Part shown: positions 16,288 to 45,654 of the stretch, one piece after another
How the letters are laid out: the number at the start of each line of letters is the position of its first letter
Numbering within the stretch: position 1 is the stretch's first letter
From: Patescibacteria group bacterium
GTDB lineage: Bacteria > Patescibacteriota > Patescibacteriia > Magasanikbacterales > GWA2-37-8
Length of the DNA stretch: 55,574 nucleotides
NCBI GenBank assembly: GCA_004321885.1
Contig: SCQK01000001.1
Coordinates: 1 to 55,574, forward strand
Direction of reading: 5' to 3'
Notes under the pieces: generated by a model
Told to the model about the DNA's origin: nothing
The model's database searches: none
Seen by the model: the letters and a program-made list of their open reading frames with translations, nothing else
Position numbers and translations under genes: made by a program

Positions 16288-17349
16288 TTAATCAATACCG
16301 AGAACATCCCTTTTGAACTCATTCACACCAAATGCGCGACAAAATTTTTCTTCGGTGCCAATAAATTCTCCATGAGGTATCAGACCCTTTAACAAGGGTT
16401 TATTTTTTATTCTCTCCAACATGGCCAACGATGGCCGCCAGTCCAAACCTGCTGCTTCGGATAATTTTTTTAATTGATAACATTCCTGCCAAAGCACCAT
16501 CTTTTTCAGTCCTTCAGAATCTTTTTTTCTGATGTCGCGGTATGTTAGCTCGGCTTTTTCCGCCAACTCATCTATTAGATTAGCAATTTCATTCTCGTTC
16601 AACCACTTGCCATCGGCTTGCACGGCAAATCGCCTCAGTCCGGAGACGGGATTTCCAGATTGAACGAGAGTGTGACAGCCAACGCCGGCGATTTTCCATT
16701 CAACATTTTGGAAGATACGATATATAAATAGCTCCTTAATTGTTGATTGGTGTTTTTCGGGCCACAATTCTCGGGTTTGTAAGTTTGGGAAATGAGTTAT
16801 AAGGAGAACCTCGTTGCCTATTTTATATGGACCATAATTATCCCAGCCGTTATCAGTCGCAAGATCGTTGTATAGGCCGTGCACGAGCGAACCAGCGCTT
16901 GTTATCAAGCGGCCGCAGAGACGCGCGGATTCTTGTGAGCCGTTTTGCCAATTTATTCGAAGCAGGATTTGTGAAGTCTCTTCCTTATTATGGAAGGGCG
17001 CGCTGTTTTCCGCGAAAGGATCATTTGGGCTGCTTTCTTCAAGCATGCGCGCCAAAAAATTTGAAACAAAGTAAAAATCAGACCAATTTTTATTTGGCGT
17101 GGTGCGCCAGCTGGAAATAATTTTTAAGATTATGGCGCGCATGCTTGAAGGGGTAGGCAGAATATTGCGTACGTCATTAAATGTTTTTTTATCCGCCTCA
17201 ATTTTTTTGAGGCAATTACAAATATGTTCCACCCATAAATCATACCAAAGCGGATAGAAATGGAAAAAATCAAGCGGTTGGAACGCTTCTAAAACATTGC
17301 CCGCGAATGCTTGGTGCATTCCCTTGTTGAATTTATCAATCCAATACAT
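16288..17349 (-). CDS. hypothetical protein (353 aa), translationally coupled to the upstream swivel-domain gene
   Basis: Overlaps the upstream ORF by 14 nt. I recognised no motifs. Confidence 0.55.
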   Translation of the reverse strand: MYWIDKFNKGMHQAFAGNVLEAFQPLDFFHFYPLWYDLWVEHICNCLKKIEADKKTFNDVRNILPTPSSMRAIILKIISSWRTTPNKNWSDFYFVSNFLARMLEESSPNDPFAENSAPFHNKEETSQILLRINWQNGSQESARLCGRLITSAGSLVHGLYNDLATDNGWDNYGPYKIGNEVLLITHFPNLQTRELWPEKHQSTIKELFIYRIFQNVEWKIAGVGCHTLVQSGNPVSGLRRFAVQADGKWLNENEIANLIDELAEKAELTYRDIRKKDSEGLKKMVLWQECYQLKKLSEAAGLDWRPSLAMLERIKNKPLLKGLIPHGEFIGTEEKFCRAFGVNEFKRDVLGID

Positions 17350-17668
17350 AGACTTCTCCCTTGGTGCCGTCCACTTTTATTAGGTCCCCGTTTTTAATAA
17401 TAGCAGTGGCGTCTTTTGTGTTTACCACGCACGGGATTCCCATCTCTCGACTCAAAATTGCCGGGTGGCTGGTAATGCCGCCGATATCGGTGATGATTGC
17501 CGCGGTTTTTATCATGGCGCCAACCATGGTCGGGTCTGTTAAAACAGCGACAAGAATGTCGCCATTGGAAAAATTTTTTGTGTCGTCGCCGGAGTTTAGT
17601 ATTCTTGCCCGGCCTTGAGTGGTTCCCTGGCTGGCGGCAATTCCGGAAAGAATTTTTCTTTCGGTCAT
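17336..17668 (-). CDS. stand-alone PEP-utilising-enzyme mobile (phosphohistidine swivel) domain protein
   Basis: ILVAVLTDPTMVGAMIKTAAIITDIGGITSHPAILSREMGIPCVVN...GDLIKVDGTKGEVYVL matches the swivel-domain consensus, including the catalytic His in TSH. Confidence 0.75.
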   Translation of the reverse strand: MTERKILSGIAASQGTTQGRARILNSGDDTKNFSNGDILVAVLTDPTMVGAMIKTAAIITDIGGITSHPAILSREMGIPCVVNTKDATAIIKNGDLIKVDGTKGEVYVLD

Positions 17669-17712: not shown

Positions 17713-18996
17713 CTACTGCAGTAGGTCGTCAAGTTCGCATGCAAGCAGGGCTGATTTGTTTAATAATATCTGCTCATTTGGATTTAATTTGTCCGCTGTC
17801 ATTCTTATAACTTTGGTTGCAATTCCATTCCCGAGCATTACGTTGTTTGTTTTTTTTAGGTAATCCTCATTTTTTTTATTAAAAAGCGAGGCATACTTTT
17901 TTAATTTTTTTTGAGTCGCGGAGTTTGAACGGGCGTCATTGCCGGAGAATTCAATTTTTTTATCAATTTTTTTATCTATTTCTATTGGCAGGTCTCCTTC
18001 TCTAAATTCAATCCAGTAGTCGCTGGTGGCATAAATAATTTTAACAGCGCTACCTTCTTCCGTCGCGTATCTAAAAATAAAAGAAAAATTTTCAGTGTGA
18101 AAATCCTGGTGAATGGAAATTTTTTCCAGTTCTTTAACGGTGTGGATTTCATAATCGTCTAAAAGCTGCCGATAACTTTCACGCCAATTTTTTAGCCAGT
18201 TTTTGATATAGGTCTGATTCACGAATAATGGCGAAAGATCGTTATTGAGATTTTCATCACTCACCCTATTCATTTGTATGGTCAGTTTATCAAAAAGAGT
18301 TCGCACACCCTTCACCTCAATATTTTTCGCCGTTAGGTAATCAAAATCCGGCACGATTTTTTTGCTCATGTACCAAAGTAAATCATAAATATCCCGCCCC
18401 TTTTCTTCATAAATAGCGTCTCCTACGCCGCGCGTGCCGCGCAAAAAAATAGCGGCTAATTTGCTGGCCATCAAGGCGGACATGTTGTAAGTTAAGATGA
18501 CAAAAGAAAGCTGGCCATGGTTTATTGGGCGCCGATCAGTGACTGTCTTTGGAGCGCTAAAATGGTTGAGGTCTATTTTTACGTGCACCTGATTGGAGGG
18601 ATGGCCGAGATTGAGTTCGTTGCCGACATGAAATTTCAAAAGCAATCCGCGGCCATTGTTGATCTTAGTGGTCAGAAAATCGGAATTGGCTCCATACGTA
18701 TTTATGAAATATTTTTCAATTTCATTTTTTAATTTTTCCAAGAATTTATCCGTTACTTCGCCAATAACTTCAAAATCCAAATCCTCGGACATGCGGTCAA
18801 GTCCGTGGATTACGCGCAGAGCCGACCCGCCATACATAGTCCATTGGCTGTACTGGGCGTGGTGATAAATAAAATTGAGAACATAATACTGCAGTTCTTC
18901 TTTGAGAGAGACGCGCCGCGTCATGGCGTCTAGGCCGCCATAGGCGGCAAGGTCATCAAGCTTTTTTTTCAGAACCATTGTTATTTGTTCGCTCAT
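17713..18996 (-). CDS. abiEii: AbiEii/AbiGii-family nucleotidyltransferase toxin (type IV TA / abortive infection) with a ~130-aa C-terminal extension
   Basis: MYGGSALRVIHGLDRMSEDLDFEV is the DUF1814 NTase motif. Overlaps abiEi by 4 nt. Confidence 0.8.
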   Translation of the reverse strand: MSEQITMVLKKKLDDLAAYGGLDAMTRRVSLKEELQYYVLNFIYHHAQYSQWTMYGGSALRVIHGLDRMSEDLDFEVIGEVTDKFLEKLKNEIEKYFINTYGANSDFLTTKINNGRGLLLKFHVGNELNLGHPSNQVHVKIDLNHFSAPKTVTDRRPINHGQLSFVILTYNMSALMASKLAAIFLRGTRGVGDAIYEEKGRDIYDLLWYMSKKIVPDFDYLTAKNIEVKGVRTLFDKLTIQMNRVSDENLNNDLSPLFVNQTYIKNWLKNWRESYRQLLDDYEIHTVKELEKISIHQDFHTENFSFIFRYATEEGSAVKIIYATSDYWIEFREGDLPIEIDKKIDKKIEFSGNDARSNSATQKKLKKYASLFNKKNEDYLKKTNNVMLGNGIATKVIRMTADKLNPNEQILLNKSALLACELDDLLQ

Positions 18997-19607
18997 ACGA
19001 ATTTGCTGATTAGTGAATAAAATTTTTTCTGCTCTCCCGCCTCCATTTCATCAATATCAATTCGCAATTCCTTAGTTAACTTTTTAATCCCAGCCAATTT
19101 TTTGATGCCGCGGAACTGGCGAGTTCGGAAATACAATAAATCAAACAAGGCCTTGGCCGGAGAAGCGATAAAAAAATCAAATTTGCCTTTGAATAAAGAA
19201 AAGCCGGAAAATGATTCGTTATTTATGGACTGGTAAGCAAAATTACCGGCTTTTGATTCGTAGTCTCTCGTAACCTTGGGAGTAACCGAAGTAATGGTGT
19301 GTATCGCTTCGGTGGCCAGATTATAATACTGCAAAGCGGCCCAGGAACTTACATATGATGGGCTGCGGATAATATTTGCGAGAAAAAAAGAATACGAGAT
19401 ATCTAACCGGTTTTTTTCAAAATAATCATCCGAAACATATAGGCCCCTTTTGAGCCGCAGAATTTCCTTGTATTTCAAAAATCGGCTGATGTAGGTGTCG
19501 GTCGTGGTTTTGGCGAGCCCCATCTGGCTGGCGAGCTGGTAGATAGTATCTTTGCTGAAGTGGGGCAATGAATTTAGCTGTATTAAGAGGTTTTTCTTGC
19601 TTTTCAT
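18993..19607 (-). CDS. abiEi: AbiEi-family antitoxin / transcriptional regulator (type IV TA)
   Basis: N-terminal wHTH-like region, ~200 aa, directly upstream of and overlapping abiEii. A TTGACA-N17-TACGAT promoter lies upstream on the minus strand. Confidence 0.75.
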   Translation of the reverse strand: MKSKKNLLIQLNSLPHFSKDTIYQLASQMGLAKTTTDTYISRFLKYKEILRLKRGLYVSDDYFEKNRLDISYSFFLANIIRSPSYVSSWAALQYYNLATEAIHTITSVTPKVTRDYESKAGNFAYQSINNESFSGFSLFKGKFDFFIASPAKALFDLLYFRTRQFRGIKKLAGIKKLTKELRIDIDEMEAGEQKKFYSLISKFV

Positions 19608-19682
19608 ATATATAACAATATCGTATCATATCTGAAATATGCTGTCAAGGGCCATTAAAGAGGTATTGTTTTGGGGAGATAA

Positions 19683-20540
19683 TCATTCCACCAGCTTCAA
19701 GAGTCGTTCGTGCGAGGCGCTGTTACTGGCGATAAGCTCGGTGTCGGTGAGCTGCCAATCCTGGCCCGCGAAGTTGGTGACCCGACCGCCGGCCGAGCGC
19801 ACCAAAAGCACGCCGGGAAGCACATCCCACGGGTGGATTTCGCTCATTACACAGCCGTGGGCACGGCCGCAAGCCACATACGACATTTCTATGCCCGCCG
19901 AAGACAAGATTCTGAAGCGGGTTGTTTTTGTATTGAGCCGTTCAATAATTTTGAGGAGATGCTTTTGCGCCGCGTCCGAGTGGCCGCCGCAAAATAAAAA
20001 CATCTCTTTGTCGCCGTGGTTATTATTGCCTGCGACGTGAATTTTTTGCTTATTCAAATACGCGACGCCCTTGTCGCTCCAAAAAATTTCCTTGTCCATG
20101 GGTATGCCGATTACTCCGATGTCAATCGTGTCGCGGTCGGCGCGCGACAGGCAGGTGGCAAACAGACGAATGCCAAAGGCAAAATTGGTGGTGCCGTCCA
20201 GCGGGTCTATGAACCACATTTTTTCACCCGGGTTGTCTATGGGCCGGTCTTCCTCGCTGGTGATATCGTCGCTCGGGAAATGCTTGAGCAGTTCGGCGGT
20301 GATAAATTTGTTGGCGCTGAAATCCGCGTCAGTGACAATTTCCTCGCCTTTTTTCAGCTTCACATGGTCCAAACCGAATTTTTGGAATTTTTTGGCCAGC
20401 AGTTTATTGGTTTTTTGCACGATTTTTATGGCGATTTTGAGGTCTTTGGTCATAATTGTCATTCTGAGCACATTCGCTCCGCTCAGTGTAAACTCCGCGA
20501 AGAATCCCTGCGCTTCGCGTTTGTTTAAGGGATTCCTCAC
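19683..20540 (-). CDS. suhB: inositol monophosphatase family protein
   Basis: Contains the WFIDPLDGTTNF motif and the rest of the IMPase fold motifs. GTG start. Confidence 0.8.
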   Translation of the reverse strand: MRNPLNKREAQGFFAEFTLSGANVLRMTIMTKDLKIAIKIVQKTNKLLAKKFQKFGLDHVKLKKGEEIVTDADFSANKFITAELLKHFPSDDITSEEDRPIDNPGEKMWFIDPLDGTTNFAFGIRLFATCLSRADRDTIDIGVIGIPMDKEIFWSDKGVAYLNKQKIHVAGNNNHGDKEMFLFCGGHSDAAQKHLLKIIERLNTKTTRFRILSSAGIEMSYVACGRAHGCVMSEIHPWDVLPGVLLVRSAGGRVTNFAGQDWQLTDTELIASNSASHERLLKLVE

Positions 20541-28592: not shown

Positions 28593-31271
28593 ATGAATCG
28601 CTTAATAATTTTAGACGGCAATGCCATAGTGCATCGCGCCTACCATGCTTTGCCTCCGCTGACCACCAAAGACGGCAAGATGGTGAATGCGGTTTATGGA
28701 TTCGCTTCCATGCTGTTAAAGGTTTGGCAGGATTTGAAACCCACGCACATCGCGGTAACTTTTGACATGGCTGGGCCCACTTTTCGGCACGTTAAATTTA
28801 AAGAATATAAAGCCACGCGCGTGAAGGCGGCTCAAGAATTGTACGACCAGATTCCCCTGACGCACGAACTGGTGTCCGCGTTCGGTCTGGCGATTTACGA
28901 AAAAAAGGGTTATGAGGCCGATGATGTCATCGGCACGCTCGTGGAAAAAACCAGAGACAGCGGTGCCGAGATTTTTATTGTTACCGGCGACAAAGACACC
29001 TTGCAACTGGTGGGCGGCAACGTGAAAGTGTACACCTTGCGCAAGGGCATGAGCGACATCGCGGTTTATGATACCGAGGAAGTGCGGCGCAAGTTTGGTT
29101 TCGGGCCGGAGCTGGTGGTGGATTACAAGGCCCTGGCCGGCGACCCTTCGGACAATATTCCCGGCGTGCCGGGCATTGGCGAAAAGACGGCGACCGAGTT
29201 GATTAAAAAGTTTGGCGGGATTAAGGAGATATATAAAAGAATAGAGAATAAAGAATTTAGAATAAAAGGTGAAATTAAAGATGGCGTGATAAAAAAGTTG
29301 GAAGCTGGCAAAGACAGCGCCCAAATGAGCAAAGAGCTGGCGACTTTGGATTGCGCCGTGCCTGGTTTGGATTTTAAGTTTGATGACTGCAAATTAAAGG
29401 AACTTGATAAAGAAAAAATTATAAAACTTTTCAGCGAATTGGAATTCGTGTCATTGCTCAAGAGAGTGCCGGAGTTCGCGCAGTCGGAAATTGTAAAATC
29501 CCAGTCGCGAAAAATAAAGGACAAAGAAGCGGATTTCAAATTCAATGAAATTAGCGATAAGACGGGATTGGGGAAGCTGAAAAAAATAATACGAGAAAAA
29601 AAGATTTTTGCCTGCCGTTATTTGTCCGGTTTGGTTTTTGTCGTCGGACACGAAGGATTTTTCGTGAAAAAAGAAATGGTTGGCGAGTGCGAGGAAATAT
29701 TTACCGACCCAGAGCTGGAATTGGTGGGGCATGATTTGAAACAGATAGTGAAGGCCATTAAAACAAACCCTCCCCTATTAGGGGAGGGACAGAGGGTGGG
29801 GTATGTCGCCAACAAACTTTTTGACGTCATGGTGGCTTCGTATCTGCTGGCCCCAGGCAGTCGGGCGCATGGCGCGGCTGACATTGTTTTTAAGGTTTTG
29901 GGCAAGCAGTTGCCGGCCGGCACTGGTCAGGAAAGCTTGTTTGGCGTGGACGCGAAGGAGGCGGCGCAAGAGTTGTATTTGCTGGCGCAAGCCGCGGACA
30001 AGCTGAAAGCCGAGTTGATGAAAATTGACGATTATGGCTTGTTTCAAAAGGTGGAAATGCCGCTGGTGTTGGTTTTGGCCGAGATGGAGCTGAACGGAAT
30101 GGCGGTTGATTTGGATATTTTGAGCGAGCTGTCTAAAAAAGTCAGCGGCGAAATTAAAAGCGTGAGCAAAAAGATTTATAAAATGGCGGGCGAGGAGTTT
30201 AACATCGCTTCGCCCCTGCAGTTGCGCGAAGTTTTGTTTGAGAAAATGAATATCCCGACCGAGGGGATAAAAAAAGGCAAGACCGGTTTGTCCACTTCGG
30301 CCGAAGAGCTGGAAAAAATGCGCGGCCTGCATCCGGTAATTGAAGAAATAGAGAATTACCGCGAGCTGGCTAAATTACAAAACACCTATATTGATGTTTT
30401 GCCGACTTTGGTGGACAAAAAAACCGGACGCATCCACACGACTTTTAATCAGACCGTGGCGGCTACCGGCCGGTTGTCCAGTTCAGACCCGAATTTGCAA
30501 AATATTCCCATCCGCACCGAGCTGGGCCAGGAAGTGCGCAAAGCGTTTGTGGCCGGAAAGGGAAATTTGCTGGTGGGCGCGGATTATTCGCAGATAGAAT
30601 TGCGCATCGTGGCGTCACTAGCCGAAGACCAAAAGATGATTGAGATTTTTGAGGCCGGCGAAGACATCCACCGGGCTACGGCCGCGGCTATAAACAACGT
30701 ACCTTTGGAAGCGGTGACCAAAGAGATGCGTCGCGCGGCAAAAGAAGTGAACTTCGGTGTGCTCTATGGCATGGGCGTGCATGGCCTCTCCTGGCGCGCG
30801 GGTATTCCTTATACCCAGGCCAAAGATTTTATTGACAAATATTTTCAGCAGTTTAGCGGAGTGAAAAAATATATTGACCGCACTTTGGAACTGGCCAGAA
30901 AAGACGGTTATTGCGAGACCCTGTTTGGCCGCCGCCGCTATATTCCCGAGCTCAATTCCGACAATCATCAGTTGCGCGCGGCCGCCGAGCGCATGGCCAT
31001 CAATCATCCGGTGCAAGGCACGGCCGCTGACCTGATCAAAATGGCGATGATTGAGGTTTCTAATGTCATTACGAGGAGCGAGGCGACGAAGCAATCCCCT
31101 TCGCCCAAACTCATCCTCCAAGTCCACGACGAATTGGTTTTGGAAGTCAAGGCCGACCAGGCCCAGGCCGTGGCCGCCGAAGTAAAAAAGGCCATGGAAA
31201 GCGTTATCAAACTCCGCGTGCCCGTGGAAGCCCACGTCAAAACCGGCCAGAGTTGGTGGGAACTAAAATGA
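28593..31271 (+). CDS. polA: DNA polymerase I
   Basis: 5'-3' exonuclease N-terminal domain (ILDGNAIVHRAYHA), a 3'-5' exo-like region, and polymerase motifs A, B and C (DYSQIELRI, RRAAKEVNFGVLYG, VHDE). Carries in-frame insertions from repeat families D and C. Confidence 0.95.
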   Translation: MNRLIILDGNAIVHRAYHALPPLTTKDGKMVNAVYGFASMLLKVWQDLKPTHIAVTFDMAGPTFRHVKFKEYKATRVKAAQELYDQIPLTHELVSAFGLAIYEKKGYEADDVIGTLVEKTRDSGAEIFIVTGDKDTLQLVGGNVKVYTLRKGMSDIAVYDTEEVRRKFGFGPELVVDYKALAGDPSDNIPGVPGIGEKTATELIKKFGGIKEIYKRIENKEFRIKGEIKDGVIKKLEAGKDSAQMSKELATLDCAVPGLDFKFDDCKLKELDKEKIIKLFSELEFVSLLKRVPEFAQSEIVKSQSRKIKDKEADFKFNEISDKTGLGKLKKIIREKKIFACRYLSGLVFVVGHEGFFVKKEMVGECEEIFTDPELELVGHDLKQIVKAIKTNPPLLGEGQRVGYVANKLFDVMVASYLLAPGSRAHGAADIVFKVLGKQLPAGTGQESLFGVDAKEAAQELYLLAQAADKLKAELMKIDDYGLFQKVEMPLVLVLAEMELNGMAVDLDILSELSKKVSGEIKSVSKKIYKMAGEEFNIASPLQLREVLFEKMNIPTEGIKKGKTGLSTSAEELEKMRGLHPVIEEIENYRELAKLQNTYIDVLPTLVDKKTGRIHTTFNQTVAATGRLSSSDPNLQNIPIRTELGQEVRKAFVAGKGNLLVGADYSQIELRIVASLAEDQKMIEIFEAGEDIHRATAAAINNVPLEAVTKEMRRAAKEVNFGVLYGMGVHGLSWRAGIPYTQAKDFIDKYFQQFSGVKKYIDRTLELARKDGYCETLFGRRRYIPELNSDNHQLRAAAERMAINHPVQGTAADLIKMAMIEVSNVITRSEATKQSPSPKLILQVHDELVLEVKADQAQAVAAEVKKAMESVIKLRVPVEAHVKTGQSWWELK
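29768..29802. repeat. family D repeat, in-frame in polA
   Basis: ccctcccctattaggggagggacagagggtggggt, translating to NPPLLGEGQRVGYV. Confidence 0.8.
31065..31104. repeat. half-copy of the family C element, in-frame in polA
   Basis: gtcattacgaggagcgaggcgacgaagcaatccccttcgc, translating to VITRSEATKQSPSPK. Confidence 0.6.
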
Positions 31272-31715
31272 CCAATCCTTCACCCTTCCCCGCGCTTTTT
31301 TAATCTCTTTGCGCATGGTCTTTTCTTCCATCCTTCTTTTTTTCGCGGCGCGCGTTGGTTTTGTTTTTCTACGCGGCTTTTTTTCGGTTAGCGCCCCTGC
31401 GACCAGCGCGCGCAACAGTTCTATGGCCAGCTCTTTGTTTTGCGACTGTGTTCTTTGGCTGTCACAGCTTAAAATAATTTCATCTTTTTTGTTTAGCCGA
31501 TTTTTCAATCTTTGCCTGATGAGCGCCTTTTGTTCTTGCGAGAAAACCAAAGACCCGCCCACTGGCCAGCGCAAATTGGCCTTGGTATTTACCTTGTTCA
31601 CGTTTTGCCCGCCCGGCCCGCCGGCGCGCGCGAACTCAAAGCTGATTTCGTTTTCGGGAATCAAGGGAATGTTATTTTTAGCATCACGCTGGGGCGCGAA
31701 AAATTTTCTGCTCAT
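31263..31715 (-). CDS. arfB: alternative ribosome-rescue factor ArfB (peptidyl-tRNA hydrolase, GGQ domain)
   Basis: ISFEFARAGGPGGQNVNKVNTKANLRW and a basic C-terminal tail. Start is taken at the MSRKFF Met, because the longer ORF would run antisense through the folD start. Confidence 0.75.
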   Translation of the reverse strand: MSRKFFAPQRDAKNNIPLIPENEISFEFARAGGPGGQNVNKVNTKANLRWPVGGSLVFSQEQKALIRQRLKNRLNKKDEIILSCDSQRTQSQNKELAIELLRALVAGALTEKKPRRKTKPTRAAKKRRMEEKTMRKEIKKARGRVKDWSF

Positions 31716-31794
31716 AGCTTTTTTAGTATAGTACAGTTTGAGGAAAGAAAAAAGGGAGGGTTGAATTAATTTTTGTTTTTGATATACTGGCGCT

Positions 31795-32709
31795 ATGGGA
31801 CAACTAATAGACGGAAAATTGATTGCCAAGCATATTGAAGCCGAGACCGCAAGGAGAGTGGCTTTGCTCAAGGAGAAAGGAGCGAAACCAAAGCTTGCGG
31901 TTTTTTTAGTCGGCGAAGACAAGCCGTCGCAAAAGTACGTCAAGAAAAAAGGCGAGGCCGCGCAGCGCGTGGGCCTGGATTTTGTTTTACATGAGTTGGC
32001 GGGCGATATTGGCATGGCCGAGTTGGTGGAAAAAATAGAAGACGCCCAGCATAATGAGGAGCTGTCGGGGATAATTATTCAGCTGCCTTTACCCGAACAT
32101 CTGTACACTTCCGAAGTGTTAAACGCCATTCATCCGGAAATTGACGTGGACTGTTTGACCGACGTGAACTTGGGCAAGTTGGTGATGAAGACCAACCACA
32201 TTGTGCCGCCAACACCGGGCGCGGTCATTACTATAATAAAGGATTTGGGCGTGGATTTGGTGGGGAAAAACGTTGTCATTATCGGCGCCGGCGCCTTGGT
32301 AGGCAAGCCGCTTTCCATAATGATGATGAATGAAAGGGCGAGCGTGACCACTTGCAACAGCGCCACGCGCGACACCAAAGAAAAATGCCTGTCCGCCGAT
32401 ATAATCGTGACCGGCGTGGGTAAAAAAGATTTATTGCGCGGTGGTATGGTGAAAGAAGGCGCCATTGTGATAGACACGGGCGTGGCTTTCGTGGATGGGA
32501 AAATGTATGGTGATGTGAACGTGGACGAGGTGATGGAGCGCGCCGCGCACGTGACGCCTACTCCCGGCGGTGTGGGCCCCTTAACCGTGGTGCGCCTTTT
32601 GTGGAATACGGTGCTGTGCGCGGAAAGAAATTTGGAACTTGGGCTGAAACCGCATTCGCGAGAAAGAATAAAATACGAAGGGCATCGGCCGGCGAAGTAT
32701 AAGCTTTAA
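31795..32709 (+). CDS. folD: bifunctional methylene-THF dehydrogenase / methenyl-THF cyclohydrolase
   Basis: IDGKLIAKHI...VGEDKPSQKYVKKK...GxGxxVGKP Rossmann motif. Confidence 0.9.
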   Translation: MGQLIDGKLIAKHIEAETARRVALLKEKGAKPKLAVFLVGEDKPSQKYVKKKGEAAQRVGLDFVLHELAGDIGMAELVEKIEDAQHNEELSGIIIQLPLPEHLYTSEVLNAIHPEIDVDCLTDVNLGKLVMKTNHIVPPTPGAVITIIKDLGVDLVGKNVVIIGAGALVGKPLSIMMMNERASVTTCNSATRDTKEKCLSADIIVTGVGKKDLLRGGMVKEGAIVIDTGVAFVDGKMYGDVNVDEVMERAAHVTPTPGGVGPLTVVRLLWNTVLCAERNLELGLKPHSRERIKYEGHRPAKYKL

Positions 32710-32799: not shown

Positions 32800-34116
32800 A
32801 TGTCACAACTTACTGTCGTGGTTGGCGCCCAGTGGGGCGATGAGGGCAAGGGGAAAATAACCGACTATCTGGCCAAAGACGCCGACTTTGTGGTTCGTTT
32901 CCAAGGAGGCAACAACGCCGGACATACGTTGGTAGTTGGGGATAAAATTTACAAACTACACCTGATTCCATCGGGTGTTTTGTATCCGGGCGCGGTTTCA
33001 ATAATCGGCAACGGCGTGGTGGTGGACCCGCTCACCCTGCTAAAAGAAATCAGCGAGTTTAAAAAAGACGGCCTGGCGCTTAATCTAAAAATCAGCAACC
33101 GTTGTCATGTCATCATGCCATATCACATTGCCTTGGATGGGGCTTTGACCGGACATCAGGGCGGGCTGGCCGCCGGCAGCACCAACCGCGGCATTGCCCC
33201 GGTCTGCGCCGATAAAAGCTATCGTCACGGCATCCGGCTGGGCGATTTGCTGGAACCGGAAATGCTTCGGGAAAAATTAGCCGTGTCATACAATTTCAAC
33301 AAAGCGATTTTGGAAAAAATTTTTAACACGCCTTTCGCCCTGTCGGAAGAAGAAATTTATAATCAGTTTTTGGATTATGGCAAATTATTGGCGCAGTACA
33401 TTGACGATACTGATGTTTTGCTTTATCGCGCCTACAAAGAAGGCAAAAATATCTTGTTTGAAGGGGCGCAGGGTTTGTCCTTGGATCTGGATGTCGGCGT
33501 GTACCCGCATACCACCAGCACCAACACGTTGGCCAGCCATATCGGCGTGGGCACGGGCGTGGGATACGACGGGAATAAACGCGTAATCGGAGTGGCCAAG
33601 GCATACGTGAGCCGCGTGGGCACCAGTCCTTTTATCACCGAACTGCCCGAAGAAGAAGCCAAGGCCTTGCGCGACAAGGGCGGCGAATACGGCACGACCA
33701 CTGGCCGTCCGCGCCGCGTGGGCTGGCTGGATTTGGTGCAACTGCGGCAGGCCGTGCGCTGTAACGGGCTGACTGAATTGGCGCTCATTAAATTGGACGT
33801 GCTAGCCGATTATGAAAAAGTGTTGGTTTGCACCTCGTATGATATAGATGGAAAAGACACCAGAGAAATGCCGGCCAGTTTGTCGCAGTTGCGCCGGGCC
33901 AAACCGGTTTATCAAGAATTCACCGGTTGGCCGGTGATAGATGGAACGGCTTTGAAACAAGGCGGGTTTAAGGGGTTGCCGCTTGAGATAAAAAACTTTG
34001 TGGAGTTTATTGAGAAAGAAACAGAGTGTCCGATCAGTATGTTGTCGTTCGGACCGGAGCGGGAACAAACCATTATTCGTGTCATTGCGAGCGAAGCGAA
34101 GCAATCCCATTCGTAA
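32800..34116 (+). CDS. purA: adenylosuccinate synthetase
   Basis: QWGDEGKGKITD, GGNNAGHT and GTTGRG motifs. The C-terminal 12 aa are encoded by the family C repeat. Confidence 0.95.
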   Translation: MSQLTVVVGAQWGDEGKGKITDYLAKDADFVVRFQGGNNAGHTLVVGDKIYKLHLIPSGVLYPGAVSIIGNGVVVDPLTLLKEISEFKKDGLALNLKISNRCHVIMPYHIALDGALTGHQGGLAAGSTNRGIAPVCADKSYRHGIRLGDLLEPEMLREKLAVSYNFNKAILEKIFNTPFALSEEEIYNQFLDYGKLLAQYIDDTDVLLYRAYKEGKNILFEGAQGLSLDLDVGVYPHTTSTNTLASHIGVGTGVGYDGNKRVIGVAKAYVSRVGTSPFITELPEEEAKALRDKGGEYGTTTGRPRRVGWLDLVQLRQAVRCNGLTELALIKLDVLADYEKVLVCTSYDIDGKDTREMPASLSQLRRAKPVYQEFTGWPVIDGTALKQGGFKGLPLEIKNFVEFIEKETECPISMLSFGPEREQTIIRVIASEAKQSHS

Positions 34117-34163
34117 TTATAGGGATTGCTTCGGTCCCGACTAAGTCGGGGCCTCGCAATGAC
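34081..34163. repeat. composite nested palindromic element (family C arms gtcattgcgag...gaagcaatccc / gggattgcttcg...ctcgcaatgac enclosing a family-B core)
   Basis: Spans the purA stop and the annotated purL start. Confidence 0.8.
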
Positions 34164-36540
34164 AACATCAAATATGATAACGACTGATTTCACGAAAATG
34201 GATGAAGCGCAAATAAAGGAATTTTTGGTTGCCAACAGAATCGCGCTGACGGTGGAAGAAATTTTGAAGATCCAAAACGAAATCTTGAAACGGCCACCCA
34301 CGCTGGCCGAGTGTATTTTGTGGTCCATTCAGGGATCAGAGCACAGCTCGTACAAATCCAGTCGTCCGCACTTGAAACAATTTCACACCAGCGGTCCCAA
34401 CGTAATACTCGGCCCCAGTGAAGACGCCGGCATTGTGGAAATTTGCTGCGACAACGAGGGCCGAAAATACGGCGTAGTGATAAGCCACGAATCGCACAAT
34501 CATCCGTCGCAAGTGGTGCCCTACGAGGGCGCGGCCACGGGCGTAGGCGGCAATGTGCGCGATGTCTGCTGCATGGGCGCGAAAGTAATCGCCTGCGCCG
34601 ACCCTCTGCGCTTCGGACAAATTGACAGTAATAAATCCAAATGGGTGCACGAGGGCGTGGTCTCGGGCATTGCCGGCTATGGCAATCCAATCGGCGTGCC
34701 AAACATCGGCGGCGACTTGTATTACGACGAATCCTACAATGAAAATTGTCTGGTCAACATTGTTACTTTGGGTGTCTTGCGCGAAGACGACATCATACAC
34801 TCGCGCGCGCCGCAAAACGCCGATGGTTATGATTTGGTTTTGGTCGGCAAGCCAACTGACAACAGCGGCTTTGGTGGCGCCAGTTTTGCTTCGTTGGAAT
34901 TAAAAGAAGAAGAAAAAGAACTCAACAAGGGCGCGGTGCAGGAGCCGAACGCTTTTTTGAAGCGCCATTTGCTCAAATCCACCTACGCGCTTTTCAAAAA
35001 AATAAAAGAGGGCGGTTTGATGGATAAAGTGGGTTTCAAAGATTTGGGCGCCGGAGGAATTGCCTGCGCTTCAGTGGAATTGGCCGACGCGGCCGGCTAT
35101 GGCGCCGAAGTGGATATTGATAAAATCCCCAAGGGCATGAACGGACTTAATCCGGCCGTGATTTTGTGCTCCGAGACGCAGGAAAGATTTATGTGGGTGA
35201 GTCATCCGGACGTGACACCGGTTATTTTGGAGCATTATAATGAAATCTTTGATTTGCCCGGCATTGCCGAAGGCGCGCGAGCGGCGGTGGTGGGGAAAAT
35301 TCGCGCTGACGGGCGCTATGTGGTGACAGCCGGCGGAGAAGAAATCGTGAGCGCGCGAGCGCAAGACGTGACACGGGGATTATTGTACAATCGGCCATGG
35401 GAAAAACCCGAGAAAAAATTGAGTGAACCAAACTTGCCCGAGCCAACCGATTACAGTGAAATACTTTTAAAAATTTTGGCCCACGAAAATGTGGCCTCGC
35501 GTTTGCCGGTTTATGAACAGTACGACAAGCAAGTGCAGGGCATCACAATGATTGAATCGGGCCGGGCTGACGCGGGCGTTTTGCAGCCATTTAAGGATGA
35601 CAGTTACCCGGAGGAAATTCGGCAAACCGGCGTCGCTTTGTCAGTGGACCAAAATCCGCGCTACTCCAAGATTGATTCTTATTGGGGGGCGGTAAACGCG
35701 GTAGTGGAAAGCTGCCGCAATGTGGCGGCTGTCGGCGCTGTGCCGTGGGCGTTGACCGATTGTTTGTGCTATGGCAATCCGGAAAAGCCAACCCAGATGT
35801 ATGAATTCGTGGAAGGGGCGCGCGGGGTGGCCGAGGCGGCCAAGGGTTTGCATTTGAAGGACTTCCCGGAAAATCCGGTGCCGATTGTTTCGGGCAATGT
35901 GTCGCTTTACAACGAAAGCAAAGGCAAACCCATCGCTCCCAGCGCCATAATTTCATGCACCGGAAAATTGAGCGACGTGAAGTGCGCGATTGACATGTCG
36001 TTTAAAAAAGCCGACTCAATTATTTTTATGGTCGGCGAGCGCAAAGACGAATGCGGGGGCAGTGTTTATTATAATTTGTTTAAAGAATTGGGAGCCAATG
36101 TACCCAAGCCGGATTTGGCGGAAGCGGAAAAACAAATTTTTGCCGTGACTGACGCGATAGAGGCTGGTCTGGTTTTGGCGGCTCACGATATTTCCGACGG
36201 CGGCTTGGCCGTCTGCTTGGCCGAGATGAGTTTTGGAAATGAGATTGGTTTCGTCTGTCATTCCCGCGAAAGCGGGAATCCAGGGTCGCAACTTCGCCCC
36301 GACAAAGTTCTTTTTTCCGAAACCGGCGGTTTTGTTTTGGAAGTGTCGCCGGAAAACCGCGGCGCAGTGGAAGAAATTTTCGCCAAACGCGGAGTAAAAA
36401 TCTTTGCCATCGGAAAAACCGCCTGTCATTCCGGGCTTGACCCGGGATCCATAACAACGTTAAAGTTTGGAGATGTAATCAACGTACCTTTAAAAGAAGC
36501 AAAAAAAGCGTGGACAGAGGGTTTGTGGGGCAAGCTGTAA
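34126..36540 (+). CDS. purL: phosphoribosylformylglycinamidine synthase subunit PurL
   Basis: PurM-like duplicated domains of FGAM synthase II. The true start is probably MTTSNM at ~34159. Contains an in-frame family A repeat (VCHSRESGNPGSQ). Confidence 0.9.
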   Translation: MLRSRLSRGLAMTTSNMITTDFTKMDEAQIKEFLVANRIALTVEEILKIQNEILKRPPTLAECILWSIQGSEHSSYKSSRPHLKQFHTSGPNVILGPSEDAGIVEICCDNEGRKYGVVISHESHNHPSQVVPYEGAATGVGGNVRDVCCMGAKVIACADPLRFGQIDSNKSKWVHEGVVSGIAGYGNPIGVPNIGGDLYYDESYNENCLVNIVTLGVLREDDIIHSRAPQNADGYDLVLVGKPTDNSGFGGASFASLELKEEEKELNKGAVQEPNAFLKRHLLKSTYALFKKIKEGGLMDKVGFKDLGAGGIACASVELADAAGYGAEVDIDKIPKGMNGLNPAVILCSETQERFMWVSHPDVTPVILEHYNEIFDLPGIAEGARAAVVGKIRADGRYVVTAGGEEIVSARAQDVTRGLLYNRPWEKPEKKLSEPNLPEPTDYSEILLKILAHENVASRLPVYEQYDKQVQGITMIESGRADAGVLQPFKDDSYPEEIRQTGVALSVDQNPRYSKIDSYWGAVNAVVESCRNVAAVGAVPWALTDCLCYGNPEKPTQMYEFVEGARGVAEAAKGLHLKDFPENPVPIVSGNVSLYNESKGKPIAPSAIISCTGKLSDVKCAIDMSFKKADSIIFMVGERKDECGGSVYYNLFKELGANVPKPDLAEAEKQIFAVTDAIEAGLVLAAHDISDGGLAVCLAEMSFGNEIGFVCHSRESGNPGSQLRPDKVLFSETGGFVLEVSPENRGAVEEIFAKRGVKIFAIGKTACHSGLDPGSITTLKFGDVINVPLKEAKKAWTEGLWGKL
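36257..36284. repeat. family A repeat, in-frame in purL
   Basis: gtcattcccgcgaaagcgggaatccagg. Confidence 0.8.
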
Positions 36541-36590
36541 AAAAAGAAGCGGTCCCGCGAGCAAAGGCGCTCGCGGAACCGCCACGGCCC

Positions 36591-36827
36591 TCACTTGGAC
36601 CCCAGACCCGAGACGGACTTGTAGTTCACGCCGAGGTAGAGCGTGCGGTCCGTGCCGAGCGCATTGAACTGCTCGATCTGGGTCCGGATGCTCTGAAGCA
36701 GGGCCTCCCCGACCGTTTTCGGATCGCCTCCGTCCGGGATGCTGGACGTCTCCTTGTTGTCGTCCAGGTTCCTTGCCGCTCTACTGACGGGCGTCTCTCC
36801 ATAGTCTTCCCCATCATCAGGCCTCAT
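36591..36827 (-). CDS. small acidic hypothetical protein (78 aa) in a GC-rich islet inside the pur operon
   Basis: AAGGAGAGG RBS 5 nt before ATG. GC-rich. Flanked by the hairpin gcggtcccgcgagc/gctcgcggaaccgc at 36546-36585. Confidence 0.4.
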   Translation of the reverse strand: MRPDDGEDYGETPVSRAARNLDDNKETSSIPDGGDPKTVGEALLQSIRTQIEQFNALGTDRTLYLGVNYKSVSGLGSK

Positions 36828-36896
36828 CGCGTCCTCTCCTTGTCTTGCCCCCTTAAAATTCTAAATCGTACTCAATTCTACAAAAATTAGCCATTT

Positions 36897-38060
36897 ATGT
36901 CAAACATCTCTTATTCCGATTCCGGCGTCAATTACCAGGCGCTTGATCCGGTGAAAAAATTGGCGCAAATCGCGGCCCGGTCCACGGCTCGTCATTTGTC
37001 GTCGTCCGGTTTCACCGAATCAGAAGACACGCGCGGCGAGTCGGCTTATGTTTGGCAGCAAGGCGACCTCCTGATGGCCTCGGTCATTGAAGGCCTGGGC
37101 ACCAAAAATTTGGTGGCTGACGCCATGCGTAAAATTACCGGCAAGACCTATTACGATATTGTCAGCCACGATACTGTGGCTACGATTATAAACGATCTTG
37201 TTTCGGTGGGCGCCAAGCCGCTTGCTCTCTTCGCTTACTGGGCCGTGGGCAAAAGCGAATGGCTGGCCGACGCGGAAAGGACAAAGGATTTGGCGGACGG
37301 CTGGAAGTCGGCTTGTGATTTAGCCCAAGTTTCCTGGGGAGGCGGCGAAACCCCCGCCTACGCCGGCATCATTAATCCGGAGACCATTGATTTGGCAGGT
37401 TCGGCCGTGGGTATTATTAAAGATAAAAATAATTTGCTCACGGACAAAAAAATACAGGCCGGAGACAGGATAATTTTTTTGAAAAGCAACGGCATAAACG
37501 CCAACGGTTTGTCGCTGGCGCGCGCGATTGCAAATACCCCCTCCTCGCCTCCCCCTTATAAAGGGGGAGGAAATCGTCTCCCTCCCCTTTATAAGGGGAG
37601 GGTTGGGGAGGGGTATGGTGCCAAGCTGCCAAGTGGCGTAATGTACGGAGAAGCATTACTCACAAAAACAAACATCTACGCGAAATTGGTACAGGACTTG
37701 CAGGCGGCAGAAGTAGATATACATTATATTACAAATATCACCGGACATGGATTGCGTAAAGTTATGCGCGGTAGGCCGAATTTTACATACGTAATAGAGA
37801 AAATTTTTGAACCGCTGGAATTATTTATTTTTATGCAAGGTCAGGCCGGGCTTTCGGATTTTGAAATGTATCAGACGTTTAACATGGGGCAGGATTACGC
37901 GATTTACTTATCAGCCGCCGACGTGGCCCGCGCTTTGGAAGTGATAAAACAAAATAATTTTACAGGCATTGAGGCGGGTTTTGTGGAAGCGGGCGAAAAG
38001 CGCGTGATAATCAAACCGAAGAATTTAGAGTATAAAGGAGAGACGTTGGATTTGAGATAA
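36897..38060 (+). CDS. purM: phosphoribosylformylglycinamidine cyclo-ligase (AIR synthetase)
   Basis: SYSDSGVNYQALDP and PurM N- and C-terminal domain patterns. Contains a tandem in-frame family D insertion (SPPPYKGGGNRLPPLYKGRVGEG). Confidence 0.85.
   Translation: MSNISYSDSGVNYQALDPVKKLAQIAARSTARHLSSSGFTESEDTRGESAYVWQQGDLLMASVIEGLGTKNLVADAMRKITGKTYYDIVSHDTVATIINDLVSVGAKPLALFAYWAVGKSEWLADAERTKDLADGWKSACDLAQVSWGGGETPAYAGIINPETIDLAGSAVGIIKDKNNLLTDKKIQAGDRIIFLKSNGINANGLSLARAIANTPSSPPPYKGGGNRLPPLYKGRVGEGYGAKLPSGVMYGEALLTKTNIYAKLVQDLQAAEVDIHYITNITGHGLRKVMRGRPNFTYVIEKIFEPLELFIFMQGQAGLSDFEMYQTFNMGQDYAIYLSAADVARALEVIKQNNFTGIEAGFVEAGEKRVIIKPKNLEYKGETLDLR
37537..37614. repeat. tandem family D repeats, in-frame in purM
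   Basis: cccctcctcgcctcccccttataaagggggagg...cctcccctttataaggggagggttggggaggggt. Confidence 0.8.
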
Positions 38061-38065
38061 ACATT

Positions 38066-39412
38066 ATGAAAGTCGCCATCATACAATTCCCCGGCAGTAA
38101 CTGTGAATCGGAATCCATTTACGCGGTGCGGCGCGCCGGCATGGAGCCGGTGGAATTTTTGTGGAATCAAGAGCACGACGAGCTGAAAAATTTTGACGGC
38201 TATTTCATCGTGGGCGGATTTTCCTACGAAGACCGCTCGCGCTCGGGCATCATCGCCTCGCTTGATCCCCTGCTTACCGCCTTGAAAGCGGAAAACGAAA
38301 AAGGCAAACCGATTCTGGGCGTTTGCAATGGGGCGCAGATTTTGGTGGAGTCGGGCATTGTGCCGGGCCTAGCCGACTATGCCGTGGGCCACCACACCAA
38401 AGATTTTGGTGTGGTGGCAGGTATGGCGCTCGCTGTAAACAAACGAGTGAAAGACGGACGCGTGCTGGGCACCGGATTTTATAATTCCTGGTCCAACGTC
38501 CAACTGTCGGCCCCGAGCGAACGCTCGGCTTTCACGCGCCACATGAAGCCGGGCGAATTTATAAATATTCCCGTGGCGCACGGCGAAGGCCGCTTTACCA
38601 TGCCGGACGAACTCTTGGCCGAATTGATTGTCAAAAACCAAACAGTGTTTCGCTACTGCGATGACAGGGGAGAAATCAGTTCGGAATTTCCGGTAAATCC
38701 GAACGGCTCCATGCATAATTTAGCGGCTGTCTGCAACGCGGCCGGCAACGCCATGGCCATGATGCCCCACCCCGAACGCACGCCGAACGGCCAAGCCATT
38801 TTTACTTCCATGCGCGAGTATGTTGAAAAAGAAAAAACCATAACGATGAAAAACGTTACGGATAATTTCCGGCCAACCGTGATGGAAATATCCGAGTATA
38901 AGCCGGAACCAAATTCTACAGAATTAGTCATCGGTTTAATCATTACAGACAATGAAGCCGGCACGGTAAAAAATACTTTGCGTCGGTTGAATATTGACGC
39001 GGAAATTACGAAATACATTCACTGGGAAATTTCGGCTGACGACCCGGCGACGATTGTCGCTTCGCCGGCTTGCCGCGACGAGCTATTTAACTCCAACAAA
39101 GAAAAGATAGTGCAACTGGGCTCCACAGCCCCGGTCGCCTGCGGCGACCGTGGGACTATGGAGTCAACCAATGCGCTTCAGAATGACAATACGGCTTATC
39201 TGCTCGTGCGCTATCGCGAAGATTTCGTGGGGCAAAGCAAACAGTATGTTTTGGAAAATCGGCTGGGCGTTTCCGGGGTTAAAAAGATAACCAAAGGCAC
39301 GCTCTGGAAAATTTCCGCGCCCAGTGATAGGATTGAGGAAATCGTAAGCAAGGTTATTTCCAGCAGGATTTTATTCAATCAATTTTCACAGGGGTGTTTT
39401 AAATATATATAG
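38066..39412 (+). CDS. purQ: FGAM synthase glutaminase subunit PurQ with a ~210-aa C-terminal extension, possibly tandem PurS-like domains
   Basis: Class I glutamine amidotransferase triad: GVCNGAQIL Cys and the His in PHPER. The extension resembles two ~85-aa PurS-like modules. Confidence 0.8.
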   Translation: MKVAIIQFPGSNCESESIYAVRRAGMEPVEFLWNQEHDELKNFDGYFIVGGFSYEDRSRSGIIASLDPLLTALKAENEKGKPILGVCNGAQILVESGIVPGLADYAVGHHTKDFGVVAGMALAVNKRVKDGRVLGTGFYNSWSNVQLSAPSERSAFTRHMKPGEFINIPVAHGEGRFTMPDELLAELIVKNQTVFRYCDDRGEISSEFPVNPNGSMHNLAAVCNAAGNAMAMMPHPERTPNGQAIFTSMREYVEKEKTITMKNVTDNFRPTVMEISEYKPEPNSTELVIGLIITDNEAGTVKNTLRRLNIDAEITKYIHWEISADDPATIVASPACRDELFNSNKEKIVQLGSTAPVACGDRGTMESTNALQNDNTAYLLVRYREDFVGQSKQYVLENRLGVSGVKKITKGTLWKISAPSDRIEEIVSKVISSRILFNQFSQGCFKYI

Positions 39413-39413
39413 T

Positions 39414-40805
39414 ATGGATTACACTTCCATCATCAGACAAAATCTGAATAATTGTCTGACGCAGACGAATTTAAATATCGGCAAGAAAAAAATTGGCAAG
39501 GTGCGCGATACCTATGAACTCGCCGATAAAATGATTCTAGTCACTACTGACCGACAGAGCGCTTTTGACCGCATTTTGGCTTCCATCCCGTTTAAGGGGC
39601 AAGTGCTCAATCAAACCAGCGCCTGGTGGTTTGAAAAAACCAAACACATTATCCCCAATCATGTTTTGTCTATCCCCGACCCCAACGTGACCATGGCCAA
39701 AAAATGCCAAGTTTTTCCGATTGAGTTTGTGGTGCGCGGGTATATCACCGGCACCACCGACACTTCGGCTTGGGTAAATTATCAAAAAGGGGTGCGTAAT
39801 TTTTGCGGCAACGCTTTACCCGAGGGTCTGAAAAAAAATCAGCAGCTGGCCAAGGCGATTGTCACGCCCACCACCAAGTCCGACGCCCACGACCGTCTGA
39901 TCAGTCCCGAAGAGATTATCGCCGAAGGACTGATGTCGCGTGAAGATTGGAACTTCGCTTCAACCAAGGCCCTGGAACTTTTTGAATTCGGCCAACAAGT
40001 GGCTCGCGAGCACGGCTTGATTTTGGTTGACACCAAATACGAGATGGGTAAAGACGAAAACGGCAATATTATTTTGTTAGACGAGATCCACACGCCCGAT
40101 TCCAGTCGCTATTGGATCGCCGAAACATACGAAGACCGTTTCGCCGCCGGACAAGAACCGGAAAACATAGATAAAGAATTTTTGCGCTTGTGGTTTAAAG
40201 AACACTGCGACCCGTATGGCGACAAAGAACTGCCGCCGGCGCCCGAGGAATTGGTGGTGGAATTATCCCGCCGCTATATCATGCTTTACGAAATGATTAC
40301 TGGCGAAAAATTTGTTTTCCCGGAGGACGCCGACATCAACGAGAGAATGAAAAATAATTTGGCTGTCATCGCGAACTCTCCTCTGAGAATAAACTCCGCA
40401 AAGCAACCCCCCGCAAAAAGGGCGGTGATAATAATGGGTTCGGAAGCGGACGCGGAGTTCACGAAAAAGATTACGATAAAATTGGACGAACTGGGGGTCA
40501 GCCACGAAGAGCATGTCGCGTCGGCGCACAAACAGCCGGCAAAGGTTTTGGAAATTTTAGAGAAAAATAAAAATGAGAAAGTGGTGTACGTGACCATCGC
40601 CGGCCGTTCCAACGCGCTCTCGGGTTTTGTGGCCGCCAATTCCGACGCGCCCACCCTGGCCTGTCCACCCTTTGTCGACAAGCTGGATATGCTCGTGAAC
40701 ATTCACTCTACTTTGCAGATGCCGAGTAACGCGCCAGTTTTAACCGTGCTTGATCCAGGCAACTGCGCCTTGGCCGTTAAAAGAATTTTTGATATATGTC
40801 GCTAA
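39414..40805 (+). CDS. purC: fusion protein: SAICAR synthetase (PurC) plus C-terminal PurE (AIR carboxylase / N5-CAIR mutase) domain
   Basis: PurC N-terminal motif GKVRDTY...VTTDRQSAFD. PurE C-terminal motif AVIIMGSEADAE...VASAHKQP...VTIAGRSNALSGFVAANSDAPTLACPP. Confidence 0.85.
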   Translation: MDYTSIIRQNLNNCLTQTNLNIGKKKIGKVRDTYELADKMILVTTDRQSAFDRILASIPFKGQVLNQTSAWWFEKTKHIIPNHVLSIPDPNVTMAKKCQVFPIEFVVRGYITGTTDTSAWVNYQKGVRNFCGNALPEGLKKNQQLAKAIVTPTTKSDAHDRLISPEEIIAEGLMSREDWNFASTKALELFEFGQQVAREHGLILVDTKYEMGKDENGNIILLDEIHTPDSSRYWIAETYEDRFAAGQEPENIDKEFLRLWFKEHCDPYGDKELPPAPEELVVELSRRYIMLYEMITGEKFVFPEDADINERMKNNLAVIANSPLRINSAKQPPAKRAVIIMGSEADAEFTKKITIKLDELGVSHEEHVASAHKQPAKVLEILEKNKNEKVVYVTIAGRSNALSGFVAANSDAPTLACPPFVDKLDMLVNIHSTLQMPSNAPVLTVLDPGNCALAVKRIFDICR

Positions 40806-42130: not shown

Positions 42131-42132
42131 TT

Positions 42133-42214
42133 GTCATTGCGAGGAGGCCTGCAGGCCGACGCGGCAATCCCTTACAAGTTTGGGATTGCTTCGGCCTAAA
42201 GGCCTCGCAATGAC
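42133..42214. repeat. family C composite palindromic element filling the purB-purF intergenic region
   Basis: gtcattgcgag-gaggcctgcaggcc...gcaatccc / gggattgcttcggcctaaaggcc-tcgcaatgac. Confidence 0.8.
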
Positions 42215-42222
42215 AAAATTCT

Positions 42223-45653: not shown

Positions 45654-45654
45654 T

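Follow-up and report, generated by a model that had tools for sequence, protein, structure and literature searches.

A stretch of 55,574 nucleotides corresponding to the oriC region (dnaA, dnaN and rpmH-rnpA-yidD) on a contig of a Patescibacteria metagenome-assembled genome, hereafter the window, was found to carry two overlapping genes that encode a 110-residue phosphohistidine carrier ("swivel") protein and an uncharacterised protein of 353 residues (Table 1). We consider it probable that both genes encode separate subunits of a three-component, split dikinase related to PpsA and rifampin phosphotransferase (RPH), the former being the carrier and the latter the domain for the second substrate. 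That the two genes form a functional unit in histidine phosphotransfer is a less specific conclusion, of which we are highly confident.

The swivel protein and its overlapping partner

The 110-residue open reading frame (ORF) matched PF00391, the mobile domain of phosphoenolpyruvate (PEP)-utilising enzymes, with an E value of 4.6e-25 (87.4 bits, the cut-off being 23.1) and spanned positions 2-72 of the 72 in the model, that is, a complete domain above the gathering score. The catalytic histidine 68, encoded by a CAC codon read directly from the sequence, lies in GGITSHPAILSREMGIPC, and the hexapeptide GGITSH agrees with the GGxT(S/C)H pattern of the catalytic histidine in PF00391. The motif also fits the consensus of PEP synthases, GGXT(S/C)HAA(I/V)(I/V)(A/S)R (PMC12167813), except for a proline instead of an alanine at position +1, and threonine 66 occupies the position of the regulatory threonine of PpsA and PPDK. 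An earlier reading of the DNA alone (the original prediction) had proposed a near-consensus swivel domain with an intact catalytic histidine, and these results bear it out. The top NCBIfam alignment of the protein was to positions 355-461 of the 798 in PpsA (E 1.1e-33); the C-terminal swivels of the PRK08296 and PRK06241 families, RPH and PigC aligned as well (E 1e-24 to 1e-31), and the alignment to PtsI was restricted to the swivel core (residues 36-108 with PtsI positions 155-229 of 575). All these scores remained far below the whole-protein cut-offs (116 versus 598 bits for the PpsA equivalog) as is to be expected when a single domain is compared with models of entire proteins. More than 300 clusters of stand-alone relatives of about 110 residues were retrieved, nearly all from Patescibacteria and many of them encoded on the same contigs as the 353 family. 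Among 30 distinct swivel sequences from related loci the GGxTxH motif was present in 29, as GGITSH in 25 of them, and was not found in the second swivel of locus L021.

To describe the genomic context of the pair we used five places fetched by exact protein look-up, 29 loci from species-representative genomes and the window itself. Pairing was strict: the swivel gene adjoined or was fused to a 353-family gene in the window and in all 29 related loci with enough upstream DNA, usually standing directly upstream and mostly overlapping it. The two were adjacent in 28 of these related loci, one histidine-phosphatase gene separating them in the other (L029), and their order was reversed in L056. In the window the swivel stop codon and the start codon of its partner lie within an overlap of 14 nt, which suggests translational coupling; the corresponding overlap is also 14 nt in L003 and amounts to 35 nt in L001, L002 and a 730-kb JGI contig. 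Both genes are fused in L004, L011 and L031. The fusion proteins P0084, P0094 and P0102 have the swivel at the N-terminus and a junction of only a few residues to the 353 domain, the conserved W3 and I4 of the 353-residue protein aligning with the P0084 junction (...EQEASWIQDF), and further fusions of 450-490 residues were found. A second, divergent swivel-353 pair is present in tandem in L021 and L030, and a fused paralogue in L018. The AlphaFold2 model of the natural fusion P0084 (pLDDT 96, pTM 0.85, with a confident linker) was a compact two-domain protein, consistent with a defined docking of the swivel on the 353 domain.

These linkages bear on the possibility that the swivel ORF is what decay has left of a PpsA/PPDK gene, or an artefact of gene calling, beside an unrelated neighbour. 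Considered by itself it is indeed one domain of an enzyme that normally has several, and ORFs of this kind are labelled "pyruvate, water dikinase" in several databases. The window was surveyed by phmmer of all six-frame ORFs and by Pfam scans of 30 large ORFs, and neither a second swivel, nor a PpsA-type ATP-grasp domain (PPDK_N), nor a PEP-utilizers_C domain was found within its 55.6 kb. Within the window the swivel domain therefore stands alone, without flanking remnants of the other PpsA domains. Together with the more than 300 clusters of intact proteins with a near-invariant active site and the strict pairing with, and sometimes fusion to, the 353 family, this makes the fragment explanation extremely improbable, and it was rejected on the grounds of conservation, pairing and fusions. 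The original prediction had named an unrelated neighbour together with a full-length PpsA/PPDK paralogue as what would overturn it; the neighbour proved to be linked to the swivel and no full-length PpsA/PPDK is encoded in the window. Its description of the swivel as an orphan holds inside the window and is misleading beyond it, since the domain belongs to a conserved multi-gene system.

The 353 family is sizeable but restricted. Its close homologues, about 100, are all of approximately 355 residues, come from Patescibacteria and lack any Pfam domain except for three that carry PF00391, and a profile search of 1.84 billion representative proteins retrieved 459 clusters. The AlphaFold2 model of the window's protein, built from a 59-sequence alignment (pLDDT 93.9, pTM 0.92), was helical in its N-terminal half and again towards the C-terminus, with a sheet of six strands (residues 170-245) in between. 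Foldseek gave no match for this model in PDB or BFVD at E ≤ 0.001, the family profile matched no PDB sequence, and Pfam scans of all 59 family members returned only noise. Specifically, neither an ATP-grasp fold nor an ATP-grasp sequence signature was found in the protein, its high-confidence model had no barrel-like PDB match that would relate it to the TIM barrel of PF02896, and similarity to the rifampin-binding domain of RPH was not detectable. As no relative emerged from the Foldseek, PDB-profile and Pfam searches, the protein does not belong to the ATP-grasps, the PEP-binding TIM barrels or the rifampin-binding domains of the RPH type; the ATP-grasp-like features that the original prediction had suggested looking for were found in neither sequence nor fold. 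Residues D27, D110, Y160, D162, Y172, H226 and Q288 are invariant in the family and the motifs HGLYND and GCH nearly so, a conservation pattern that suggests an active site, possibly a metal-dependent one.

Some architectures around these families deserve mention on their own. In L039 (4450..7083) two tandem stand-alone swivel genes precede a gene for a 664-residue protein with a 353-like domain (P0194). This contig is probably from a DPANN archaeon, an archaeal-type CCA-adding enzyme being encoded nearby, and one swivel cluster is labelled Nanoarchaeota; the swivel-353 system may thus be common to bacteria of the Candidate Phyla Radiation (CPR) and DPANN archaea. In P0251, P0276, P0262, P0279 and P0283 a 353-like domain, accompanied by a swivel or not, is fused to an extra uncharacterised N-terminal domain of about 330 residues, and hhalign comparisons of this domain (P0251/P0262-type) with PPDK_N and with the 353 family revealed no similarity. 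Five pair-carrying GTDB records (L011, L012, L016, L017 and L020) bear the title "uncultured Gammaproteobacteria", which is probably a mislabelling; in L012, gene order and proteins match those of L001, a locus that had been fetched for a Patescibacteria-family protein.

ATP-grasp, phosphatase and regulator genes in related loci

The kinase part of the putative enzyme was found in relatives. In P0231 (697 residues) the 353 domain is fused to a PpsA-type ATP-grasp domain (PF01326, PPDK_N, E 2e-97), and on the two contigs encoding this protein a swivel gene and a His_Phos_1 gene lie just upstream. Four consecutive genes of L008 encode a His_Phos-like protein, a swivel, a 353 protein and a stand-alone PPDK_N protein (312 residues, E 2e-99). 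A PPDK_N gene adjoins the swivel-353(-like) pair in L046, L056 and L088, and in L011 one is located 2 kb from the swivel-353 fusion. Stand-alone PPDK_N proteins of about 312 residues form a very large family in the same kind of organisms (58-87% identity to the query among the relatives listed), with PpsA as their closest sequence relative (E 8e-101). The original prediction had envisaged the swivel and the overlapping protein as a possible split enzyme; the adjacency, the fusions and the P0084 model uphold them as a unit, but the kinase part would reside in this third, PpsA-type protein.

A survey from the PPDK_N side, covering 80 metagenome loci and a distance of 8 kb, found swivel-containing genes near the stand-alone PPDK_N gene in 59 of them. 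Often these were arrays of two to six paralogues in which a variable domain is followed by a C-terminal swivel, grouped around a single PPDK_N gene (L049, L055, L058, L065, L071 and L104), and a 1763-residue ORF of L090 (7980..13271) contains one PPDK_N and four swivel domains. Such arrangements suggest that one ATP-grasp serves many substrate modules. The proteins of the arrays resemble the HpeH subunit of two-component dikinases, as they align partly with PRK06241 and RPH beyond the swivel. A U2-type histidine-phosphatase gene (see below) was present in 12 of the 80 loci and an adjacent swivel and 353-like pair in three, the L046, L056 and L088 already mentioned. Given the proportion of PPDK_N loci with a swivel gene nearby, swivel modules in these organisms are as a rule served in trans by a separate ATP-grasp, the swivel-353 pair being a distinct type among such modules.

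Clustering of the neighbouring ORFs identified two families, U1 (about 233 residues) and U2 (about 314 residues), located directly upstream of the swivel gene and between them present in most of the informative loci. A histidine-phosphatase-like gene of these families stood beside the pair in 24 of the 35 loci inspected, a count in which some loci are copies of one and the same place and others are truncated by the end of their contig. Both families carry the RH(G/S) motif of the histidine-phosphatase superfamily, and U2-type members matched PF00300 with E values of 8e-5 to 6e-9; in many U1 members an asparagine replaces the second catalytic histidine. The U2 gene lies downstream of the pair in L014 and is the one between both genes in L029, and a metallophosphatase (Metallophos) takes the same position in L016 (by motif) and L038 (by a weak Pfam match). 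Besides, a divergently transcribed regulator of the TrmB family was present in at least 11 loci. Sub-family assignment of the phosphatases yielded only weak, sub-threshold resemblance to SixA and PPP-type phosphatases, far below the curated cut-offs, which hints that the phosphatase may reset the carrier.

Such a resetting step would also be part of a regulatory phosphorelay, in which the swivel would be a diffusible phosphohistidine carrier like HPr or NPr, phosphorylated by the ATP-grasp and dephosphorylated by a phosphohistidine or protein phosphatase, and the 353-residue protein its regulated target or sensor. The identity of those best matches (a phosphohistidine phosphatase and protein phosphatases), the usual adjacency of the TrmB transcription regulator and the tandem free-standing swivel genes of L039 would fit a relay of this kind. 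We regard it as quite unlikely, considering how far the phosphatase matches fall short, how many Asp, His, Tyr and Gln residues of the 353-residue protein are invariant, as is typical of active sites, and that several relatives have the 353 domain fused to catalytic modules.

The pair can also be read as a PEP-dependent, Enzyme-I-like system, the 353-residue protein then being a non-homologous PEP- or pyruvate-binding domain that charges the swivel histidine from PEP. Run in reverse with the ATP-grasp, it would be an analogue of PEP synthase or PPDK; the phosphorylated swivel would pass its phosphate to another protein or metabolite, and with the PGM-like histidine-phosphatase gene the pair would make up a divergent lower-glycolysis module. 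Most loci have no ATP-grasp nearby, PpsA swivels are the closest to the 110-residue protein, the swivel-353 order mirrors that of the swivel and PEP-binding barrel in PpsA and Enzyme I, and the neighbouring phosphatase belongs to the superfamily containing dPGM. Pyruvate kinase, enolase and PGM are patchy across CPR genomes, where divergent replacements are suspected (PMC7304191), and a module of this type would fit that patchiness. The asparagine in place of the second catalytic histidine in many U1 proteins, however, argues against a working mutase, and the Metallophos gene found instead of His_Phos at some loci fits a phosphatase and not a mutase. A PEP-dependent pair is, in our opinion, unlikely.

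By analogy with PpsA, RPH and HpeHI (PMC4844700, PMC12167813), the three-component dikinase that we favour might operate as follows. A stand-alone PpsA-type ATP-grasp (PPDK_N, about 312 residues), presumably encoded elsewhere in the genome, would use ATP to phosphorylate histidine 68 of the swivel, and the phospho-swivel would dock on the 353-residue protein, which would bind the second substrate and catalyse phosphoryl transfer to it from histidine 68. The overall reaction would be that of the RPH-like dikinases, in which ATP, a substrate X and H2O yield AMP, X-P and Pi by way of a phosphohistidine. The phosphatase, in relatives usually encoded in the same operon and mostly of the histidine-phosphatase superfamily, would then act on the phosphorylated product or on the phospho-swivel, and the TrmB-type regulator would control the operon. 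We infer this direction of phosphoryl flow and the role of the 353-residue protein as acceptor-substrate domain, as well as ATP rather than PEP being the donor where, as in this organism, no PPDK_N gene is adjacent. Judging from the kinds of phosphatase at these loci and from a regulator of the sugar type, the acceptor most likely belongs to the small phospho-metabolites, for instance sugars or organic acids.

Several observations weigh against this scheme. No PPDK_N gene occurs in the window, nor is there one less than 6 kb away from the pair in around 90% of the related loci. The window also has none of the phosphatase and TrmB genes that typically accompany the module, an AbiE gene pair occupying their place. 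The 353-residue protein is unlike any known substrate-binding or phosphotransfer domain, gene linkage being the basis for its proposed catalytic role. Finally, the linker of the natural fusions comprises only a few residues, whereas those of PpsA and PPDK are long and flexible, which favours a docked carrier over a far-swinging one. A bolder extension of the scheme, which we offer tentatively and with more doubt than conviction, is that the 353 family constitutes a catalytic phosphotransfer domain of unseen fold and the swivel a freely diffusing, HPr-like carrier. One shared stand-alone ATP-grasp would charge it along with the other swivel modules arrayed in these genomes, and the whole would amount to a dikinase network for many substrates, built as hub and spokes and restricted to Patescibacteria and DPANN.

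Gene content of the window

The U1, U2 and TrmB families were not found anywhere in the window, and its Pfam survey detected none of the other parts of Enzyme I (PEP-binding TIM barrel and HPr-binding subdomain). Directly upstream of the swivel gene, on the same strand and separated from it by 44 nt, are AbiEii and AbiEi, a type IV toxin-antitoxin or abortive-infection pair. This position would allow the swivel-353 pair to be read as accessory defence genes of the AbiE system, an explanation that we find hardly credible. AbiE genes were not seen beside the pair in the related loci inspected, PADLOC models matched the AbiE genes only, and the guanine-plus-cytosine content of the AbiE segment (35-43%, versus about 50% for the window) is consistent with an insertion; comparative context, base composition and PADLOC thus contradict this reading. 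On account of that low content and of a promoter-like site of its own, the AbiE pair looks like an insertion at the site that the phosphatase and TrmB genes occupy in relatives.

Table 1. Location of the swivel-353 pair and other features in the window
Feature	Position	Strand	Basis or remark
Partner protein gene, 353 aa, uncharacterised family	16288..17349	-	inferred second-substrate, phosphoryl-acceptor domain
Stand-alone phosphohistidine swivel (carrier) protein gene, 110 aa	17336..17668	-	PF00391 match, PpsA-like by NCBIfam
14-nt overlap, swivel stop codon and 353-aa start codon	17336..17349	-	ORF coordinates
Active-site motif GGITSHPAILSREMGIPCVV, residues 63-82	17423..17482	-	read from sequence
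Codon of histidine 68	17465..17467	-	read from sequence
AbiEii (427 aa) and AbiEi (204 aa)	17713..19607	-	directly upstream of swivel gene
Promoter-like site of AbiE pair	19648..19620
Inositol-monophosphatase (IMPase)-family gene	19683..20540	-	upstream of AbiE insert, same strand as pair
RF-1-domain ORF	31263..32015	-
FolD ORF	31795..32709	+
Purine biosynthesis cluster	32800..47235	+	apparently complete
Fused PurC-PurE	39414..40805	+	within purine cluster
Fused PurF-PurD	42223..45072	+	within purine cluster

The IMPase-family gene beyond the AbiE insert could stand in for the phosphatase partner of relatives, but the link is probably coincidental, since in no other locus inspected was such a gene found beside the swivel-353 pair. 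An EndoIV-type gene of the window recurs near the pair only in L004, which looks like ordinary synteny. Elsewhere in the window, an apparently complete cluster for de novo purine biosynthesis, unusual for a Patescibacteria genome, encodes PurA, PurL/PurQ-like and PurM-like proteins, PurB, PurN, PurH and the fused PurC-PurE and PurF-PurD. The RF-1-domain and FolD ORFs, which run on opposite strands, share about 220 bp; for one of them the listed start codon is probably placed too far upstream.

Relation to known systems and implications

The chemistry of the system is most likely that of the known swivelling-domain dikinases, of which split, two-component versions have already been described. 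In HpeHI, CreHI and PpsAB (phenylphosphate synthase) the ATP-grasp is a subunit of its own, which phosphorylates the swivel carried by the substrate-binding subunit (PMC12167813). The system proposed here would share with them a split, operon-encoded organisation, an ATP-grasp on its own polypeptide and a swivel histidine that passes the phosphoryl group to a second substrate at another site. Their swivel, however, is the C-terminal domain of the substrate-binding subunit, itself homologous to the rifampin-binding domain of RPH, whereas here it is a separate 110-residue protein, N-terminal in the fused relatives; the 353-residue partner, unlike theirs, has no detectable RPH-type similarity and the ATP-grasp gene is usually not adjacent. 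RPH offers a precedent for phosphotransfer by a swivel histidine (PMC4844700) and, like the PRK06241/PRK08296 "PEP synthase-like" family (including PigC and RedH), combines a PF00391 swivel histidine with a PpsA-type ATP-grasp. It does so in a single chain of ATP-grasp, substrate domain and swivel; in our system the domain order is reversed and the 353 domain is not homologous to the RPH substrate domain.

PpsA and PPDK are the closest sequence relatives of both the swivel and the stand-alone ATP-grasp, and they share the order of swivel followed by second-substrate domain. In contrast to them, the present system has no PEP-utilizers_C TIM barrel, its putative second-substrate domain is an unrelated alpha/beta protein, and three polypeptides take the place of one chain: PPDK_N is found neither in the same polypeptide, an ORF of just 110 residues, nor in the rest of the window. 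Enzyme I, HPr or NPr and SixA of the phosphotransferase system (PTS) offer the parallel of a small phosphohistidine carrier moving between partners, with an associated protein of the histidine-phosphatase superfamily; the carrier here is, unlike in the PTS, a swivel of the Enzyme I/PpsA type and not of the HPr fold, no PTS components are present, and the linkage is to an ATP-grasp instead of a PEP-binding barrel. The features that appear to be new are the carrier as a separate protein of 110 residues, a partner domain without detectable sequence or structural relative, and an ATP-grasp that several modules may share and whose gene mostly lies apart from the pair. Neither stand-alone swivel proteins nor the 353 family turned out to be described for Patescibacteria in the literature searched.

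The genomes of Patescibacteria are very small and their recognised metabolism has large gaps; even so, they retain the module together with a stand-alone ATP-grasp of high conservation and, often, several partner genes with a swivel. The compactness of the system, three small soluble proteins, makes direct testing in vitro possible. Should our interpretation be right, it would represent a three-polypeptide version of the swivelling-domain dikinase mechanism with the phosphohistidine carrier as a free protein, and it would provide the first functional context for an unannotated family of hundreds of sequence clusters without a structural relative. It would also point to a phosphorylation step not recognised before, linked with a phosphatase and a regulator of the sugar type, in organisms with a patchy lower glycolysis. 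If the hub-and-spoke network were real, its swivel-353 spoke might fill in for a step lacking from central carbon metabolism, such as the interconversion of PEP and pyruvate or the phosphorylation of a sugar.
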